A stretch of DNA of 32,000 nucleotides from Coprobacillaceae bacterium (GTDB lineage Bacteria; Bacillota_I; Bacilli_A; Erysipelotrichales; Coprobacillaceae): positions 600,001 through 632,000 of the forward strand of contig OY776328.1 in NCBI GenBank assembly GCA_963675515.1. Direction: 5' to 3'. A program made the translations under genes and the position numbers. Below, piece after piece: positions 187 through 25,643 of the stretch (positions are counted from its first letter, which is position 1; the number at the start of each line of letters is the position of its first letter). The notes under the pieces are model-generated. The model searched no databases and had not been told where the DNA came from. It saw only the letters and a program-made list of their open reading frames with translations.

Positions 187-846
187 ATGGAGAATAAAGG
201 CTTAAGCGTATTTGTGATTTTCATAGTCTCCCTGGCAAGTGTCTTTTTGAGTTCCAATCTGTTTTCTTCATTCGAACTCGACGCCCAATATGAATTTCAG
301 GGGCGGGTAGTTGCCATCACAAATGATGGGGTTGAAATCGAGACGGACGGCACGACCCAGGAAGTATCGCTGTCGGATGGCCAAAAGGGGCAACTTTATG
401 TCTTGGAAACCGTGGCCATAAGCGAAGGCGAAGTGTTCCAGGTGGACGACAGTTCGGTCGGTTATTATGAGAACATGCAAATAGTCACAAGTGAAGGTGT
501 GGTTCAAAACGTCGACAGTGAAGGTGTGACCATCAATGATACGACATATTCTTGCGACGATAACACAATCGATTGTGCGCCGGGGGATAATGTCTATTTC
601 GAATTTTATGAAGACAATGACGGGGTAGAAACAATCATCAACATGTACGAACAGGAAAAATTATTCGATCTTCGGGTGGAGACCATCAGCCGCAACAGTG
701 ATGGTTGCATGGTGTTGAACAATGAATATGTGATCGATGCCTCCACCGATCTGAACATCGATATCATGACAATTGCGGTTATGGATAATTGCCAGATCAG
801 CGTTGATGAGAAAAATAATATTGACATTCTAAGATATGTTGCATAG
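187..846 (+). CDS. Hypothetical secreted/anchored acidic protein with prepilin-like N-terminus (no Glu+5)
   Basis: AGGAG lies 7 nt upstream of the ATG. The N-terminus MENKG|LSVFVIFIVSLASVFLSS is a short polar leader ending in Gly followed by about 20 hydrophobic residues. The rest is acidic with 4 Cys and loose internal repeats (GRVVAITNDGVEIETDG / EGVVQNVDSEGVTINDT / RVETISRNSDGCMVLNN). Terminators flank it on both sides. Confidence 0.7.
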   Translation: MENKGLSVFVIFIVSLASVFLSSNLFSSFELDAQYEFQGRVVAITNDGVEIETDGTTQEVSLSDGQKGQLYVLETVAISEGEVFQVDDSSVGYYENMQIVTSEGVVQNVDSEGVTINDTTYSCDDNTIDCAPGDNVYFEFYEDNDGVETIINMYEQEKLFDLRVETISRNSDGCMVLNNEYVIDASTDLNIDIMTIAVMDNCQISVDEKNNIDILRYVA

Positions 847-902: not shown

Positions 903-931
903 TTGATTTTGTTCGATAAAATCGTTATAAT
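903..931 (+). promoter_or_regulatory. Sigma-A type promoter for the three-gene pilin-like operon
   Basis: TTGATT (903-908), 17-nt spacer, TATAAT (926-931). Confidence 0.6.
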
Positions 932-971: not shown

Positions 972-1406
972 ATGAATAATAAAGGTTTCGGGCTGGTCTC
1001 GGTTTTGGCAATTTTTCTAGTATTGACAGTATTGATTGTTTCATTGATGACCTTGTCCAAGGTGCAGTCGCTGCAAGTAGTAAACCAAACGGTCGAGGAC
1101 CAATTGGAATTGACGGCAAAGAATGCAATCGACATGGTATCAACGGCCATAATCAATACCGAAACCGAAGGCGATGATGTCGCCCTGGCAAACATGGTTC
1201 CAGCAACAATTGATCAAAGTTACAATCTGGATATTGACCTTGGCGATGAGAGTCAGGGAACAATCTCCGATGCGAAAATCACCAGGACGGTCAAAAACGT
1301 CGCCATCATTTCCCTTACAGTATCGAAAGGGAATATCGACTATGACCTTAAGGGTGTGATGATCCGGGCAAATTTCAGATGGGAGTTTCAAAACTATGCT
1401 AAATGA
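972..1406 (+). CDS. Minor pseudopilin-like protein (ComGG/PilX-like layout, no Glu+5)
   Basis: A GGGGAG SD lies about 7 nt upstream of the ATG at 972. The ORF-track start at 948 has no SD. N-terminus is MNNKG|FGLVSVLAIFLVLTVLIVSLMTL. Length is 144 aa. Confidence 0.7.
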   Translation: MNNKGFGLVSVLAIFLVLTVLIVSLMTLSKVQSLQVVNQTVEDQLELTAKNAIDMVSTAIINTETEGDDVALANMVPATIDQSYNLDIDLGDESQGTISDAKITRTVKNVAIISLTVSKGNIDYDLKGVMIRANFRWEFQNYAK

Positions 1407-1716
1407 AAAAGGAATGACATTAGTTGAGGTTATTGTGTCGATGATCATACTTTCGATTATCATGCTTGGTGTGACAACTGCCTATCTTGCGTCATTGAAG
1501 CAGGATCTTGCGACAGCCAACTACCAAAGCATCGCTGACGATCTCAAGGTGCAGCTTGACAAAATGGATTTGAGCGGCGAAGCCGCCAATATTTCGGTAA
1601 CTATCGACTTCAATGACGGTGCCAAAATTGTTCAATTGAATGATGTGGTCCGCAAAGAGGTTTCGGATTCATCCGAGCCGACTATTTCGTTTGTGCGCTA
1701 CTATGCGCTTGACTGA
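1396..1716 (+). CDS. Prepilin-type N-terminal cleavage/methylation domain protein (minor pseudopilin, ComGD/GE-like size)
   Basis: MLNEKG|MTLVEVIVSMIILSIIMLG matches the class III signal G|(F/M)TL(V/I)E with Glu at +5. It overlaps the preceding CDS by 11 nt. GGGAG lies upstream. Confidence 0.8.
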   Translation: MLNEKGMTLVEVIVSMIILSIIMLGVTTAYLASLKQDLATANYQSIADDLKVQLDKMDLSGEAANISVTIDFNDGAKIVQLNDVVRKEVSDSSEPTISFVRYYALD

Positions 1717-1739: not shown

Positions 1740-3362
1740 ATGAACAACCAAGGTTTTACATTAGTGGAAATTGTGATTACTTTGGCAATCGGTGCGATTG
1801 TGTCCATTGCCATAGGAAAATCGTTTTTTGATTATTTCAAGTCATATGGTCAGATGTCGACAACCCAGATCCAGACGATGGCTTTGAATGGCGTAAATGA
1901 AATCGTCAACAACCAGGTAGAAGATGCCATGACGGTTGCTATTCAACCCGGCAACTACGTCCTTCAGGATGGGGAATATGGCATTTATGCCAATGATGAT
2001 GGTGATCTGATGCTTTGCGACAAGAGCGGTGACATCATGACCATGTTCACCAGCCAGACAGGATCAATCAATATCCTGAACCTCTTTGTGGAAAAGGACA
2101 CCGACCTTAATCAGCTGAGGTTCAAGTACGTCTATACTGACGGTTCAAGCGAGATATTATCGCGTACGCTGACGACCCAGTTGTTCAATGCCGATGAGGT
2201 CAAATATCTAGGTAACAACTACAACGGTGATTCCAATACGTTCTTGCTTGAAAATGACAACGCCGCCAACATCCTGGTATTCACCGAGGCTTCGCTGACC
2301 TCGAACAAACCGGAAGACCCTACCGCCGAAGAGTATTATGCGATATTGTCATATTATCTTGGAGACCCTTCGTTCACCCCTGAAGACCCCCAAACGTATT
2401 TTTATGGGATGGTGTACTGGGATGGGGAAAAATATCAGGTTTTCAACAATACTTCAGTAATACAATATGGTGGAAAAGAAATCGATCTTAAAGATGTCCC
2501 AAGCTATGGCAGCCTGTTTGATGAAGCTACATATGAAAATGAGAAATATAGTGACTTTTACAATAGCTTCAAGAAAAACGGTCAGATAAATCTTAAAGGT
2601 GGTGTTGTTGTATTCTATGACGGCAAGTACTGGGTACGCCAACGTGCGCCAGAGGGAAATAATAGAGATGAGCAAGACAAGTCTTTTGCAGGACTGACGG
2701 GTGGAACTTATAGGTTGCTGGAAGATTTGAAAACTACAAAACTCTCTTCAGAACAGAAGTACCACATTGAATTGAAGTACTATGACTCTTCCGCTTCCTA
2801 CAATGCGGGGGATATCGTCTACAAAGATGGAGCGCTCTATCAAGTCACATACCATGCAAATGATGACGATAGTATAAGTATAAAATTTAATATACTTGAC
2901 TCACTATATGACGAGACCAAGTATCCGAATCTAATTGTCAAACTGGATGTAATTACCAAAGTGGAAATCGCGGTTTTTGATGAGACACTTCCTTACTATC
3001 TCAACAAGTATGTGATTGTAAGCTACGGGGAAACCGACCAGAAGGAAATATACAAAAAAGTCCTCGACAATACCAGTGTGACTGATCCAAGGGACACTAC
3101 CCAACGGTACAACGGTGGCTGGCAATTGCAGTCGAATCAGTATGATCCTTATTCATGTTATGTTGCCGGCAATCAGGTATTGGTTTTCGGTGATCAAAAT
3201 GATGAAATATATGTGATTACCTTCGGGGCGGAATATGTTGAAAGTGCGGCGGCTAGGATTGCCTTGGACGCGGATATTGCGACATGTTACAAAGATAACG
3301 CGGATTCAGCATCTAATAGCACGTATCATTATTCTATTGACAAATATGATTTCAACGATTAG
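1740..3362 (+). CDS. Large (540 aa) modular prepilin-type protein with a Tyr-rich C-terminal repeat module
   Basis: An AAGGTGGG SD precedes the ATG. MNNQG|FTLVEIVITLAIGAIVSIAIG is a textbook prepilin motif. A Pro/Glu linker spans about nt 2298-2399. The C-terminal roughly 320 aa carry four degenerate Y-x2-G-x2-V-x3-G-x2-[YW]-x-V repeats. Confidence 0.85.
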   Translation: MNNQGFTLVEIVITLAIGAIVSIAIGKSFFDYFKSYGQMSTTQIQTMALNGVNEIVNNQVEDAMTVAIQPGNYVLQDGEYGIYANDDGDLMLCDKSGDIMTMFTSQTGSINILNLFVEKDTDLNQLRFKYVYTDGSSEILSRTLTTQLFNADEVKYLGNNYNGDSNTFLLENDNAANILVFTEASLTSNKPEDPTAEEYYAILSYYLGDPSFTPEDPQTYFYGMVYWDGEKYQVFNNTSVIQYGGKEIDLKDVPSYGSLFDEATYENEKYSDFYNSFKKNGQINLKGGVVVFYDGKYWVRQRAPEGNNRDEQDKSFAGLTGGTYRLLEDLKTTKLSSEQKYHIELKYYDSSASYNAGDIVYKDGALYQVTYHANDDDSISIKFNILDSLYDETKYPNLIVKLDVITKVEIAVFDETLPYYLNKYVIVSYGETDQKEIYKKVLDNTSVTDPRDTTQRYNGGWQLQSNQYDPYSCYVAGNQVLVFGDQNDEIYVITFGAEYVESAAARIALDADIATCYKDNADSASNSTYHYSIDKYDFND

Positions 3363-3377
3363 GTAAGGTGAAATAAG

Positions 3378-4214
3378 TTGGTGGCTTTAAACGACAATTG
3401 GAAAGATTTGTATGTTGATGTTGATTTGTACCACGGCCTGATGACCAAGATCACCAGGGACAACGAAAAGTGCTGTCATCTGGCCTTGGCCAATGTGGAA
3501 ATCTGCTGTGGCAGTTACACCGATGCATTGCAGGCGGCAAAGGGCGGTGCCAGGCGGATTGAGCTGAACACATCCTTGGAGCAAGGTGGGCTGACTGCCA
3601 GCCCCTCGGTGGTGAGGCTGATCAAAGCCAATCTTGATTTGACTATCAATGCTATGGTCCGTTGCCGGGCTGGGGGCTTCCATTACAGTGACGATGATTT
3701 CCTGGTGATGAAAAGCCAGGCGCTCGAACTGATGGAGGCTGGTGCCGACGGAATAGTGTTCGGGTTTCTGGACCGCCATCGCAAGGTCGACTACCTGCGG
3801 GTTCAGGAGTTCGTCCACCTGATCCATTCCTACAACAAGAAGGCTATTTTCCACCGGGCTTTCGATGTGTGTGCCGACCCGCTCGAAGCGATGGCGGTGT
3901 TGATTGAACTTGGGGTTGATGTCCTTTTGACATCGGGCAAGAAGCAAACGGCACTCGAAGGCAAGGATTTGATAAGATATCTGGTTGGCCAATACGGCAA
4001 GCAGATTGAAATTGTCGCCGGAAGTGGAATAACCCATGAAAATGCCAAGGAACTGGTCTGCTACACCCAGGTAAAGAGCATCCATTCTTCCTGCAAGAAG
4101 TTTGTGAAGGATGCGACTGCCACATACCAGGGTGTCAGTTTCGAAACCGAGCGCCATGGACAGCAGGCTGTCAGTGGCCAAAAAGTTAAATTGTTGCTAG
4201 AGGAAGTGGTCTGA
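3378..4214 (+). CDS. cutC: CutC-family copper homeostasis protein
   Basis: NVEICCGSYTDALQAAKGGARRIELNTSLEQGGLTASPSVV matches the CutC N-terminal signature (E.C......A...GA.RIEL...L..GGLTPS). The TTG start at 3378 has an AAGGTGA SD 6 nt upstream. An alternative ATG sits at 3441. Confidence 0.8.
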   Translation: MVALNDNWKDLYVDVDLYHGLMTKITRDNEKCCHLALANVEICCGSYTDALQAAKGGARRIELNTSLEQGGLTASPSVVRLIKANLDLTINAMVRCRAGGFHYSDDDFLVMKSQALELMEAGADGIVFGFLDRHRKVDYLRVQEFVHLIHSYNKKAIFHRAFDVCADPLEAMAVLIELGVDVLLTSGKKQTALEGKDLIRYLVGQYGKQIEIVAGSGITHENAKELVCYTQVKSIHSSCKKFVKDATATYQGVSFETERHGQQAVSGQKVKLLLEEVV

Positions 4215-4228
4215 CCACTTCCTTTGTT
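4201..4228 (+). terminator. Rho-independent terminator of cutC
   Basis: Perfect 10-bp stem AGGAAGTGGT (4201-4210) / ACCACTTCCT (4214-4223) with a CTG loop, then TTGTTT. The stem includes the TGA stop. Confidence 0.8.
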
Positions 4229-21985: not shown

Positions 21986-22862
21986 ACTCTACGCTGGAAT
22001 TGTCGCTGGAATCCTGGCTTTCGGTCTGGACTGTTGTGGCGATTTCCTGGTGTTTAAGTTCGATGATGTCAATATGATTATCGCATAGGAATTTGAATTT
22101 GAAATTCGATTCCTCGTCATAACCGTTGGATACGATCAGGCTCGCCTGATTCTTTTCATAGCGGCCATGAGTGTAGATCGAACCGTTGGTTTTCTTGATC
22201 ATGCCGCCGACAAAAGGCAGATAGATGTAACCGCCATTGGTGTGACCAGAAAGCTGCAGACTGGTCAAAGAGCAATTGGTCTGGAAACTGTCAGGCTCGT
22301 GGGCAAGGGTGATGGAAAAATCCGCTTTTTCACTGGTGATGTTTTCCAGGTTGCTTGAAGGATCGATGCCATACAGGGTGAAGTAATCATCCTTGAAATA
22401 TATAATCCTTTTTTCGTTTTGAAGGACCTCAAAACCGGCCTTGTTCAAGATGGCGATGATGTTGGCTTTGTTTGGAATGTCCTTGTCGCCTAGCACCGCG
22501 AACTTGCCATAGCTTGTCTTGATTGAGGAAAGGATTGAAATCACATTTGTCTCGTCGAAAATAGAGCTTTCGTAAAGGTCTCCGGCAAACAGGACCATGT
22601 CGCTGTTCTGGCCGTTGATCGAGGTGATCAGATCACTCAATTCATCGACATCGGTTGAATCAGTCAGGTTCACATCGGAAAGCATTGTGATCTGGAAATC
22701 GTCTAAAGTGGTCGAGACAGCAGGTGACTGGTATTGGACTTTATTGAAGGAAACTTGGTTGGGGGCGACAAAATAGCTATATGCAACGGTTGCAATTAAA
22801 CCACTGATTATCAAAATGGCAATCAGTGGTTTGAGTTTTATTTTGCGTCTTTTCTTAGTCAT
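21984..22862 (-). CDS. Membrane-anchored metallophosphoesterase (YkuE/YaeI-like)
   Basis: An N-terminal TM segment (LIAILIISGLIATVAYSYFV) is present. Motifs are LSDVNL, FAGDLYE, LGDKD, HEPD and SGHTNGG. The start overlaps the rnj stop by 8 nt. Confidence 0.8.
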   Translation of the reverse strand: MTKKRRKIKLKPLIAILIISGLIATVAYSYFVAPNQVSFNKVQYQSPAVSTTLDDFQITMLSDVNLTDSTDVDELSDLITSINGQNSDMVLFAGDLYESSIFDETNVISILSSIKTSYGKFAVLGDKDIPNKANIIAILNKAGFEVLQNEKRIIYFKDDYFTLYGIDPSSNLENITSEKADFSITLAHEPDSFQTNCSLTSLQLSGHTNGGYIYLPFVGGMIKKTNGSIYTHGRYEKNQASLIVSNGYDEESNFKFKFLCDNHIDIIELKHQEIATTVQTESQDSSDNSSVE

Positions 22863-24768
22863 TTTGCTTCTTGTTCATGATTACCGGAATAATCATCGGA
22901 TTGCGCTGGGTCTTCTTGTAGAAGTAAGACGATAATGTTTCCCGGGCAACATTTTTGATATTGCCGAAAGTCGTCTTGCCACCTAATTCCTTTGTCAAAG
23001 CCCTGTTGACCAAGTATTCCGCTTCCTTGAGCATCTCGTAGCTGTCTTTCATATAGATGAAGCCACGCGAGATCAGGACCGGTTTTTTCAATAATTTTCC
23101 TTCATGTGAATCCATCGCGATCAATACGGAAACCATCCCGTCCTCTGAAAGTATGGTACGGTCGCGTAATACCGCGGTTGAAAGCCCAGAAGAGTCGTTT
23201 CCGTCGACAAAAATGTCATCGGCCTGGATCCGCGGCCCGATTTTGACCTGGTGGTTGTTTAAAAGCAAGGTATCACCATTGGCCAGTACGAACGTGTTTT
23301 CTTCGCTCATCCCTACATCCAGAGCCAATTTGGCATGGGTTTTGAGCATTTTGAATTCACCATGCATCGGCATGAAGAATTTCGGTTTCAACAGCAAGAG
23401 CATAAGCTTCTGTTCTTCCTGGGACGCATGCCCGGAAGTGTGCAGGTTGTTGTAAGGGGTGTTGGTCAAAACCTTTGCCCCGGCTCTAAAAAGCTTGTTG
23501 ACAACCTGGTTGATGCTGTAGGCGTTGCCTGGGATAGGACTTGACGAGAAAAGGACCGTATCCCCGGGTTTGATTTTGACATACTTGTGGGTTCCTTGGG
23601 CGATTCTTGACAAAGCTGCCAGAGCCTCACCTTGTGAACCGGTACATAAAATCAGTATTTCATTGTCAGGCAGATTCTTTGCCTGAGAATTTTTGATAAA
23701 GAAATTGTCAGGACATTTGATATATCCTAATTTGCGGGAAACTTGTATATTGTTTTCCATTGAACGACCATAAACTAAAATTTTACGATTGAATTTAACT
23801 GCAGCTTCGACAATCTGCTGCACCCTGTGAACGTTTGATGCGAAGGTGGCCACAATCAGGCGGCCTTCGGTTTTTCTGAATTCATCCCGGATTCCCTGAG
23901 CAACCTCTTTTTCGGAGCTCGAGAATGTTTCAACTTCCGCGTTGGTTGAATCCGACATCAGTAAATCGACACCGGTCTCTCCCAAAAATGACATCTTCTG
24001 GAAGTCGGCGGTATCGCCAACAGGCGACAAGTCGAATTTGAAGTCGCCGGTCTCCACGATCCGGCCATTAGGTGTATTGAGTATGACACCCAGACTTTCA
24101 GGAATCGAGTGATTGGTTTTGAAAAAACCGATATTGAAATACTTCGACTTGATTATGTAATCACCGTTCGTGATGACGATCTTCGAAGCGTTGAGCAGGC
24201 GCTTTTCTTCGAGTTTGCGGCGGATCATAGCCGCTGCCAGAGGAGTCGCATAGATGAACGGAATCTTGATGTCCTTGAGCAGGAACGGAATTCCACCAAT
24301 ATGGTCCTCGTGACCGTGGGTAATGATCAGCCCGCGGATCTTCTTTTCGTTTTTGCGCAGGTAAGTGTAGTCAGGAATGACATAATCGATTCCTGGCAGA
24401 CTGTCACCGGCGAATTTTACCCCCGCATCGATAATGTACAGCTCGTTTTCGTGTTCTACACAATACATGTTCTTTCCGACCTCGTGAAGTCCTCCCAAGG
24501 CGAAAATCTTTGTATCGGGATTTTTCTGTCTCGATTGGTTTTTCGATTGGTTTTTCGGTTGGTTCTTTTGTTGTGTCTTCGATGCATTGCCCTTGGCCTG
24601 TTGCCCTTTATTAGGGCCTTGTCTGCGGTTTGGGTTGCGGTTGTTGCGCGGTTTTTTCTGATTGTCGTTTGCCGCCTTTTTTACAGTGGCGGCAGTGTTC
24701 GTGTTAGTGTTCGTATTCGTATTTTTAGTTTTTTGGCCACCCTGATTATTTGATGGCTGTTTATCCAT
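22855..24768 (-). CDS. rnj: Ribonuclease J with a low-complexity N-terminal extension
   Basis: The core from KIFALGGLHEVGKNMY, ITHGHEDHIGG and the beta-CASP and C-terminal domains are present. I prefer the ATG at 24768 (MDKQPS...), which has AAAGGAGAA 4 nt upstream, over the start at 24801, which would overlap degV. Confidence 0.92.
   Translation of the reverse strand: MDKQPSNNQGGQKTKNTNTNTNTNTAATVKKAANDNQKKPRNNRNPNRRQGPNKGQQAKGNASKTQQKNQPKNQSKNQSRQKNPDTKIFALGGLHEVGKNMYCVEHENELYIIDAGVKFAGDSLPGIDYVIPDYTYLRKNEKKIRGLIITHGHEDHIGGIPFLLKDIKIPFIYATPLAAAMIRRKLEEKRLLNASKIVITNGDYIIKSKYFNIGFFKTNHSIPESLGVILNTPNGRIVETGDFKFDLSPVGDTADFQKMSFLGETGVDLLMSDSTNAEVETFSSSEKEVAQGIRDEFRKTEGRLIVATFASNVHRVQQIVEAAVKFNRKILVYGRSMENNIQVSRKLGYIKCPDNFFIKNSQAKNLPDNEILILCTGSQGEALAALSRIAQGTHKYVKIKPGDTVLFSSSPIPGNAYSINQVVNKLFRAGAKVLTNTPYNNLHTSGHASQEEQKLMLLLLKPKFFMPMHGEFKMLKTHAKLALDVGMSEENTFVLANGDTLLLNNHQVKIGPRIQADDIFVDGNDSSGLSTAVLRDRTILSEDGMVSVLIAMDSHEGKLLKKPVLISRGFIYMKDSYEMLKEAEYLVNRALTKELGGKTTFGNIKNVARETLSSYFYKKTQRNPMIIPVIMNKKQND
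24532..24567 (-). repeat. 3 x 12-nt in-frame tandem repeat inside the rnj 5' region
   Basis: Plus strand: CGATTGGTTTTT / CGATTGGTTTTT / CGGTTGGTTCTT. It encodes KNQ(P/S) x3 on the minus strand. Confidence 0.9.
24694..24723 (-). repeat. (Asn-Thr)5 hexanucleotide-type repeat inside the rnj 5' region
   Basis: Minus strand: AAT ACG AAT ACG AAC ACT AAC ACG AAC ACT. Confidence 0.9.
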
Positions 24769-24785
24769 TGGGTTCTCCTTTTTGT

Positions 24786-25643
24786 TTATAGTTTGTTGCA
24801 AACGCTAATTGCTAAAGCGTGAGGACCGATATGGCAGGAAACGCTAAGTGAAAGTGGGTCGACTTCAATATCTTCGACATCGAACTCCCTGATCAATTCT
24901 TCCTTGAGTTCCTGTGCTGTTGCTTGGTCATATGTATAAGCGATATCGATGTTCACATTATCGGGATTTCCATCGAACTTTTCATCGATTACCTGTCTGA
25001 TCGCATCGATCATGATCCGGGTCCCTTTTTTCATTGTCCTGGTCCTTGAATAGGTATCAAGTTTTTCGGTCGAAAGGTGCAAAATCGGCTTGATTTTAAG
25101 CATGCCGCCAAGCAAGGCGACAGCCGGAGTGATTCTCCCGCCCTTGCGCAGATATTCCAAGGTGTTGACAGTGATGAAGATATCATGTCTTCGATTTGGG
25201 CCTTCAAGAATTTCCTTGATCTGGCTGGCTGTGCTGCCTTGCCTGACCAGTTTCAAGGCGTCGAGCACATCCCGCCGCAAAGCGACGGAGATTCGTTTCG
25301 AATCGACGACCTGGACCTTGCCTTCATATTCCTGGGCCAGCAATAGCGCCGTCTGACATGATCCTGACAAGCCACTTGACATGGGGATGTATACAATCTC
25401 GTCATATTCTTGTAAGACAGATTCCCATAGTCTGGTGACTTCGTTAGCAATTGGTTGTGAAGTAAATAATTCGGCATTATTCATTAATTTTTCATAAAAC
25501 TCATCCTGAGTTAAATTGATGTCTTCGTAAAAGGTAGTACCATTGATGGAAAAGGGCATAGGCAAGACCCAAATTCCCATATCCTGAGCTTGTTGTTGGG
25601 TGATACCCGAATTACTATCCGTAATTATCGCAATTTTGCCCAT
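24786..25643 (-). CDS. degV: DegV-family fatty-acid-binding protein
   Basis: KIAIITDSNSGITQ, TSQP and IPMSSGLSGS are DegV motifs. Length is 285 aa. A TAGGAGG SD is present. Confidence 0.88.
   Translation of the reverse strand: MGKIAIITDSNSGITQQQAQDMGIWVLPMPFSINGTTFYEDINLTQDEFYEKLMNNAELFTSQPIANEVTRLWESVLQEYDEIVYIPMSSGLSGSCQTALLLAQEYEGKVQVVDSKRISVALRRDVLDALKLVRQGSTASQIKEILEGPNRRHDIFITVNTLEYLRKGGRITPAVALLGGMLKIKPILHLSTEKLDTYSRTRTMKKGTRIMIDAIRQVIDEKFDGNPDNVNIDIAYTYDQATAQELKEELIREFDVEDIEVDPLSLSVSCHIGPHALAISVCNKL

Follow-up and report, generated by a model that had tools for sequence, protein, structure and literature searches.

The three-gene locus and its large pilin

We analysed a stretch of 32,000 nucleotides (nt) from a Coprobacillaceae bacterium (contig OY776328.1 of assembly GCA_963675515.1, positions 600,001 to 632,000 of the forward strand), referred to here as the window, with a focus on a gene for a modular pilin of 540 amino acids (aa). 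The gene is the last of a compact trio, or cassette, encoding proteins of 144, 106 and 540 aa (Table 1). The 540-aa open reading frame (ORF) is a real gene under selection: the ratio of non-synonymous to synonymous substitution rates (dN/dS) is 0.12 against a homologue of 92% identity, which indicates purifying selection. A Shine-Dalgarno-like GAAGGTGG is found 5' of its ATG.

Table 1. Features of the pilin locus, in window positions (M1 to M4 are modules of related pilins; copies 1 to 4 are repeats proposed in the initial annotation)
Feature	Position	Strand	Evidence and remarks
Promoter-like site, TTGATT-17-TATAAT, 5' of the three pilin genes	903..931	+	Consensus scan, 10/12 matches; consensus match only
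Cassette gene 1, 144-aa pilin-like protein (MNNKG/FGLVS...), without Glu5 as in GspK	972..1406	+	ORF list; mechanical ORF start 948
Cassette gene 2, 106-aa minor pilin (MLNEKG/MTLVE...)	1396..1716	+	PF07963, 31.5 bits, above cut-off
Modular pilin gene, stop codon included	1740..3362	+	ORF of 540 aa
Class III (prepilin) signal, residues 1-26	1740..1817	+	Leader MNNQG, Phe+1, Glu+5, hydrophobic tract of ~21 residues
Pilin module, residues 1-185: long N-terminal helix, then beta strands	1740..2294	+	hhalign 99.8% to the pilin module of operon-encoded large pilins; low-confidence AlphaFold2 (AF2) model
Family-specific insertion, residues 186-245: Pro/acidic linker and copy 1	2295..2474	+	Gapped against related pilins
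Module R2, residues 276-330 (copy 2), counterpart of M1	2565..2729	+	hhalign to M1/M2 80%, E 1.5e-5
Module R3, residues 346-392 (copy 3), counterpart of M2	2775..2915	+	hhalign to M1-M3 87-92%
Module R4, residues 408-464, counterpart of M3	2961..3131	+	hhalign to M3 96%, E 1.9e-9
Module R5, residues 462-512 (copy 4), counterpart of M4	3123..3275	+	hhalign to M4 94%, E 1.9e-7
C-terminal cap, residues 513-540: helix end and hairpin	3276..3359	+	AF2 model; varies between strains
cutC-family gene, 16 nt 3' of the pilin gene, same strand	3378..4214	+	PF03932, E 2.5e-51

The protein begins with a class III signal in textbook form, MNNQG followed by FTLVEIVITLAIGAIVSIAIG. This signal scores 28.4 bits against PF07963 (cut-off 21.2) and 23.6 bits against TIGR02532 (cut-off 16.3), and residues G5, F6, T7 and E10 are invariant across the family. 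The initial annotation of this DNA had described a textbook prepilin motif, which both models bear out, and the peptides and coordinates it quoted all translate exactly and in frame. The Tyr-rich C-terminal region that it reported was recovered as well, with Tyr making up 11.3% of residues 186-540 and 4.9% of residues 1-185.

In terms of structure, the full-length AF2 model, based on a family alignment of 9 sequences, is unreliable (predicted local distance difference test, pLDDT, 41); it places a helix at residues 8-63, followed by strands. A full-length profile of the family matched only the N-terminal pilin helix in the PDB, and NCBIfam holds no model beyond the N-terminal motif for the 540-aa pilin or for the large pilins of type IV pilus operons discussed below. 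Pfam matches to DUF1281_C and Colicin_D were dismissed as sub-threshold noise. The pilin nature and the modular design of the protein are well supported. Modular pilins have been defined by a pilin motif together with a domain that is not specific to pili (Raynaud et al. 2021), and here the motif is followed by a tail of ~300 residues homologous to arrays of the carbohydrate-binding module (CBM) 5/12 type.

Tail modules and their relation to CBM5/12

The modules of the window pilin are not mutually recognisable and a shuffle control was null (both described below), so the claim of repeats rests on homology to better-preserved relatives. When the full-length family was aligned to 18 related large pilins, hhalign gave a probability of 99.8% (E 2.4e-29, columns 1-492), and the tail alone (residues 246-540) aligned to the tails of the relatives at 98.5% (E 3e-15). 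The modules M1-M4 of these relatives are related to one another (hhalign E 1e-5 to 1e-11), and their counterparts in the window pilin are the modules R2-R5.

This correspondence revises the four degenerate repeats of the initial annotation. Copies 2, 3 and 4 stand (hhalign 80-96%, E 1.5e-5 to 1.9e-9), whereas copy 1 does not and R4 (FDETLPYYLNKYVIVSYGETDQKEIYKKV...GGWQLQ) had been overlooked. Copy 1 (YFYGMVYWDGEKYQV, residues 220-234) does not hold up as a fifth module, since its hhalign probability to any module is at most 2%. The insertion that contains it, residues 186-245, is highly conserved inside the family. Among the modules, R3 is the best-preserved CBM5/12-like hairpin, and R5 is the most conserved part of the tail, with W461, Q462, L463, N466-P470, S472, Y474, G477, Q479, F483, G484 and E489 invariant.

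The link to CBM5/12 is clearest in the relatives. We aligned 24 sequences, namely the window pilin, its paralogue P0008 (see below) and 22 distant relatives, and 14 of them match Pfam CBM_5_12 (PF02839) at E<=1, most of them below the gathering cut-off of 26.2 bits. The best match, module 3 of the relative P0025, lies above this threshold (34.9 bits, E 1.6e-8). Against the PDB, the pooled module profile of the relatives matches a Vibrio chitin oligosaccharide deacetylase (4ny2, E 4e-5) and the C-terminal module of a DUF3472 protein (8pn5, E 8e-5). Further matches of this profile are 3wx7, the chitin-binding domain (ChBD) 2rts of a Pyrococcus furiosus chitinase, the Chromobacterium chitinase 4tx8 and the ChBD 1ed7 of Bacillus circulans ChiA1. 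With the window pilin as its first row, a tail profile matches two successive modules to 4ny2 (E 3e-4) and one entire module to 2rts (E 3.7e-4). All significant sequence matches with solved structures are chitin-active enzymes, except All3316 and the DUF3472-domain protein. We therefore regard the tail modules of the relatives, on these profile matches, as CBM5/12-type carbohydrate-binding modules. By its homology to them, the tail of the window pilin descends from a four-module array of this type, with modules that have eroded below database thresholds in the window lineage.

All3316 is at the same time the best solved-structure match of the tail profile (PDB 7b5h chain AE, residues 41-94, E 6e-5), and it is not a chitinase. 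It appears to hold the same hairpin module as the pilin tail. This protein is a component of a cyanobacterial contractile-injection-system structure.

Tested directly, the window pilin gives a weaker picture. When R3 (residues 346-392) is scanned alone, CBM_5_12 is the top Pfam match (E 9.6e-4, 19.6 bits), below the cut-off. The core hairpin motif Y-x-x-G-D-x-V-x-Y-x-G-x-x-Y is present in R3, where it reads YNAGDIVYKDGALY, and R2, R4 and R5 hold degenerate forms of it. PF02839 is matched by 4 of the 32 modules of the family, all sub-threshold, and is the sole Pfam family matched by more than one of them. Chitin oligosaccharide deacetylases appear at E 0.3-4 when the modules of the family are compared alone with the PDB. 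By itself, then, the window pilin does not qualify as a CBM5/12 protein and is not a threshold-passing member of PF02839. The initial annotation had lined up its third repeat with the CBM5/12 core: the motif and the first rank in Pfam stand, the score and the coverage of half the profile fall short. The profile search that it proposed likewise leaves the window pilin below the PF02839 threshold, and the CBM5/12 resemblance is partly supported, mainly through homologues. A reading of the 'GD-V-Y-G-Y' hairpin as SH3-like or Tudor-like was rejected, as such families are absent from every Pfam scan.

A separate AF2 model of residues 276-540, based on a tail alignment of 21 sequences, has a pLDDT of 75.7 and a predicted template modelling score (pTM) of 0.59. 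Residues 405-535 reach a pLDDT of ~80-93 (R4 80-93). Every module is modelled as a beta hairpin with a distal third strand; for R2 the hairpin lies at residues 290-300 and the strand at 324-326. Foldseek with this model gave one significant match in BFVD, a phage 'ChiC_BD domain containing protein' (E 1.5e-5, probability 0.97). The structure prediction and Foldseek search proposed in the initial annotation thus yielded a ChiC_BD match and no significant fold in the PDB. The predicted structures point weakly in the same direction as the CBM5/12 interpretation and are not decisive.

Several results weigh against reading the protein as a pilus-borne adhesin with CBM5/12-type modules. In terms of sequence, R2-R5 are too eroded to be recognised directly among themselves (hhalign probability at most 8%), and the whole 540-aa protein has no PF02839 match in Pfam even at E<=1. 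The R3 alignment does not reach beyond the first hairpin and takes in positions 2-24 of the 44 in the profile. The best PDB matches of the family's modules alone are marginal, with All3316 (7b5h) at E 0.007 and the Pyrococcus ChBD 2rts at E 0.036. In the shuffle control, an independent module hidden Markov model (HMM) was not significant on the tail, as 172 of 500 shuffles score equally high; for this reason we make no claim that the window sequence by itself reveals the repeats. In terms of structure, Foldseek against the PDB gave nothing significant, with phage tail fibres as best match (E 0.02) and ChiB, 4tx8 and a CBM73 only at E ~2.6-3. The BFVD match has a TM-score of 0.14, so its likeness is local and per module only. 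Moreover, the most conserved modules, R4 and R5, could be structural rather than ligand-binding. Lastly, pilB, pilC and pilD are absent from the 32-kb window and from the 10 kb around loci L001, L002, L004 and L011.

These points bear first on the idea that the repeats are chance aromatic-rich beta strands, with the tail being an unrelated beta-rich domain of superficial CBM5/12 likeness. The missing Pfam match of the whole protein, the high-scoring shuffled tails, the failure of the family's modules to recognise one another, the lack of a significant PDB fold and the unsupported copy 1 would all fit it. It is nevertheless very improbable, and largely refuted, by the homology of the tail alone and its one-to-one module correspondence with four-module pilins. 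The mutually related modules of the relatives match CBM_5_12 and solved ChBDs, and no other Pfam family is matched by more than one module of the window family.

The phage matches raise a different possibility, an adhesin for a bacterial surface polymer (peptidoglycan, capsule or wall glycopolymer) that would drive aggregation or biofilm formation, like the CBM5/12-like hairpins of phage tail fibres. The best structure matches are indeed phage tail-fibre and receptor-binding proteins, including the ChiC_BD protein, and a T4 long-tail-fibre subunit and a tail spike are among the PDB sequence matches of the module profile. Capsule genes and a glucosaminidase/ChW wall protein also lie 5' of the trio in L004 and L011, though gene neighbourhood is weak evidence. 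Against this stand the significant solved-structure matches, which are to chitin-active enzymes apart from the two proteins named above, and the CBM5/12 family itself, whose default ligand is chitin and which is generally regarded as chitin-specific (PMC3267712). We consider a surface-polymer adhesin rather improbable. Still, the eroded signature and the phage-tail-fibre matches keep other ligands (peptidoglycan, bacterial polymers, host glycans), or no ligand, as live alternatives.

Operon-type relatives, a vWA-bearing paralogue and the gene neighbourhood

The close family of the 540-aa pilin is very small. It comprises 9 proteins among 5.8 billion clusters, forms four 50%-identity clusters among 1.84 billion representatives, and occurs in one of 185,579 species genomes, a Coprobacillaceae metagenome-assembled genome (MAG; OY780959.1). 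Roughly 30 distant pilins, 450-690 aa in length, also emerged from the exhaustive search. When the tail alignment was used for a second large-database search, only 5 proteins were recovered, among them P0015 of Amedibacillus sp. YH-ame10, which carries the NCBI name 'PilW family protein' and a precomputed PF02839 match.

P0015 is encoded in a complete type IV pilus operon with the order pilA - pilD - pilC - pilM - N - O - (383 aa, no Glu5) - (318-aa pilin) - P0015 - pilB - pilT. Beduini massiliensis and an Absiella-type contig share this arrangement, with pilins of 460 and 482 aa that have four modules each; in all three, a GspK-like gene precedes that of the ~320-aa pilin. A search with the Amedibacillus PilB gave matches of at least 64% identity throughout the best 120, with none from three complete genomes. 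Judged by these homologies, the 540-aa pilin is a diverged paralogue of the 450-480-aa pilin encoded just 5' of pilB in complete Erysipelotrichaceae type IV pilus operons.

The small partners are related to those of other cassettes. The 144-aa protein shares 46-58% identity with the first cassette gene of L001 and L008, and has a weak NCBIfam match to GspK (E 8.9e-5); the 106-aa pilin shares 47-57% with the second cassette gene of the same loci. One could suppose from the orphan position of the cassette, away from the machinery, and from weak N-terminal matches of the partners to ComGE, ComGF, GspK and GspH, that the 540-aa protein serves a competence (Com) or type II-secretion-like system as a pseudopilin and is not part of an adhesive retractile pilus. 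Those matches, however, are confined to the N-terminal helix that such proteins share and score well short of the cut-offs, and the operons of the homologous large pilins also encode PilM, PilN, PilO, PilB and PilT, which denote type IVa-like pili. A pseudopilin is therefore highly unlikely.

A paralogue with a different payload was found in a MAG named Erysipelotrichaceae bacterium. This organism is a close relative of that of the window, as their housekeeping proteins share 90%-identity clusters. The protein, P0008 (714 aa), is 51% identical to the window pilin in its N-terminal 246 residues and 43% in its tail R3-R5. A vWA domain with an intact DxSxS motif replaces the R2-holding region (window pilin residues ~247-332). 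Its trio (142 aa, 104-aa pilin, 714-aa pilin) lies at L008 4443-7383 and also at L007 and L009, and the partner proteins are 57-58% identical to those of the window. The L008 locus differs from the window in having two DDE transposase genes that flank the trio and no link to cutC. Given this second trio at another locus, with a vWA domain in place of the R2 region, the trio acts like a cassette that can be duplicated and whose payload site is exchangeable.

Furthermore, synonymous divergence along the pilin gene is mosaic. We compared window 2475-3359 with L010 743-2374, which encodes the 92%-identical homologue. Synonymous divergence (dS) is 0.07 in residues 246-345 and 0.07-0.14 over residues 246-407; it climbs to 1.06 over residues 408-512, and the final 28 residues are saturated. 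At its C-terminal end, the L010 homologue resembles the more distant L004 gene. This mosaic dS, together with the sharply differing C-terminal cap, suggests intragenic recombination in the pilin gene.

Both findings bear on whether the protein is only a structural or priming subunit, a large member of a tip complex like GspK or PilX, in which the hairpins, as eroded relics, would provide a rigid cap or a docking site for partner pilins and bind no glycan. Several observations agree with such a role: conservation peaks in R4-R5 and in the insertion 186-245 rather than in CBM-like signature residues, the CBM_5_12 signal stays below threshold and covers no more than the first hairpin, the gene holds the position of the largest minor pilin of the operon-type relatives, and no curated NCBIfam family extends past the N-terminal motif. 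On the other side, modules of the relatives pass or approach the CBM_5_12 threshold, and the paralogue holds a vWA domain, with a DxSxS motif of the metal-ion-dependent adhesion site (MIDAS) type, on the same scaffold, which speaks for a ligand-presenting role of the tail. Exposed adhesins, in addition, typically show mosaic recombination of the kind suggested for the tail. We judge a purely structural role unlikely.

The trio together with the adjoining cutC is kept in L001, L002, L004 and L011. The terminator scan found no terminator-like site between the pilin gene and cutC, and one at 4198-4226. The adjacency holds in each cutC-linked locus of the analysis. There is no obvious functional tie between a copper-homeostasis CutC and pilins.

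Other genes around the trio vary between loci. A 219-aa ORF of the window (187-846, + strand) has a degenerate pilin-like N-terminus, MENKG/LSVFV, without Glu5, and is followed by a terminator-like hairpin at 848-867, shortly before the promoter-like site of the trio. It has no match in the families searched. L004 and L011 also have this ORF 5' of their trio (the window and L004 copies are 63% identical); it is absent from L001 and L002. In these last two, both Coprobacillaceae MAGs, three genes lie 5' of the trio (L001 3499-8771, L002 3485-8818). They encode an FctA-type (sortase-pilus) protein, a protein of 705-723 aa and a protein with Cadherin-like domains. In the 705-723-aa protein there is a long (PE)n linker, and its C-terminus bears two dockerin-like segments (GDANLDGKISSTDYVVIKK... 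/ ADYNGDGKVSSLDYVLIKK...). Elsewhere in the window, a 648-aa ORF (22855-24801, - strand) has an N-terminal low-complexity run of (Asn-Thr)n (NTNTNTNTNT).

Proposed function and comparison with known systems

We think it reasonably likely that the 540-aa protein is a modular minor pilin of the type IV class, with four CBM5/12-derived modules, displayed at the filament tip with its two small partners as an adhesin for glycans of the N-acetylglucosamine (GlcNAc) type. In short, it is probably a sticky filament tip, its glycan binding and tip location being what we infer from the relationships described above. The pilin would be processed by a prepilin peptidase whose gene lies at another place in the genome and would join the 144-aa partner, which has no Glu5, and the 106-aa partner in a minor-pilin complex located at the tip of a type IV filament. 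The tip complex is proposed by analogy with GspI-J-K and with PilA-PilC of Streptococcus sanguinis (PMC9934059). Displayed outward, the module array may act as a multivalent adhesin for an insoluble GlcNAc-type glycan; chitin would be the ligand by default of the module family, with peptidoglycan or host glycans as alternatives. The region around R2 may serve as an exchangeable payload site, as the paralogous cassette carries its vWA adhesion domain there.

As a wider and more tentative possibility, the three genes may form a portable 'tip-adhesin cassette' that is kept apart from the machinery in Erysipelotrichales and owes its diversity to module swapping (CBM5/12-type array or vWA) as well as intragenic recombination. 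Different tips could in that case be fitted to a single pilus motor, including a multivalent binder of chitin or GlcNAc-type glycans. The orphan cassette and its vWA paralogue suggest such an exchangeable tip specificity.

Modular pilins explain how one simple filament performs many jobs. To our knowledge, only few of their payloads have been studied experimentally (vWA, a lectin and a DNA-binding solenoid). If the interpretation we favour is true, gut Erysipelotrichales would gain a multivalent tip grip on insoluble GlcNAc polymers such as dietary or fungal chitin, peritrophic matrices and cell walls. CBM5/12 would be extended from enzymes to a motor-driven filament, and a chitin- or GlcNAc-binding filament tip would be new to experiment. 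Because payload modules can fall below database thresholds, as they do here, surveys that rely on InterPro signatures undercount them.

The combination itself is not without precedent, and the earlier remark that no pilin with CBM5/12-like repeats was known proved too strong. Dataset S1 of Raynaud et al. 2021 (PMC8179133) has one entry with an architecture of pilin motif and CBM5/12 (IPR012902-IPR003610), and P0015 in GenBank has its PF02839 match. In the literature we searched, no description or test of a CBM5/12-bearing pilin was found.

The operon-type large pilins are among the closest known systems. The window pilin is homologous to them across the pilin module and all four tail modules, and the order of the three minor-pilin genes is the same. 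It differs in sharing only ~20% identity with them, in the 60-residue insertion (186-245) of its family, and in modules that lie below Pfam thresholds. Its partners are also much shorter, at 144 and 106 aa where those in the operons have about 150-383 and 307-323 aa, and the gene is very rare, adjoining cutC outside any pil operon.

In terms of function, a parallel is S. sanguinis, with the modular minor pilins PilB (vWA) and PilC (a concanavalin-A-like lectin module), the non-canonical PilA and a PilA-PilC lectin tip complex (PMC8179133, PMC9934059). Both systems combine a prepilin signal and a small pilin module with a grafted ligand-binding part, both co-encode a non-canonical small pilin (the one in the window without Glu5), and both point to a proposed adhesive tip complex in a monoderm. 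Like PilB, the paralogue P0008 carries a vWA domain. In contrast, the payload in the window consists of four tiny CBM5/12-type modules rather than one globular domain, and sequence similarity between the two systems stops at the N-terminal motif. The window cassette also sits away from the pilus machinery and is known here from sequence alone.

With the CBM5/12 domains of known structure (1ED7, 2RTS and the tandem CBM12 of 4NY2), the tail shares the Y-x-x-G-D-x-V-x-Y-x-G-x-x-Y hairpin, modules of ~45-55 residues, a tandem layout and profile matches at E 4e-5 to 4e-4. It departs from them in modules that fall below the family threshold, in a poorly kept second half (the conserved Trp/Pro region), in fold support that is indirect, and in being attached to a pilin and not to an enzyme.

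Finally, minor-pilin sets of the GspI-J-K type are thought to cap and prime the filament. The trio resembles these type II sets and the type IV minor-pilin tip complexes in being a co-encoded set in which one member is without Glu5 and the largest has an extra domain. It differs from GspI-J-K in having three genes, not four, and in a sequence relation limited to the N-terminal helix. Set beside these systems, the 540-aa pilin is a rare, eroded form of an established modular-pilin design, to which the orphan cassette and the vWA swap add interest.

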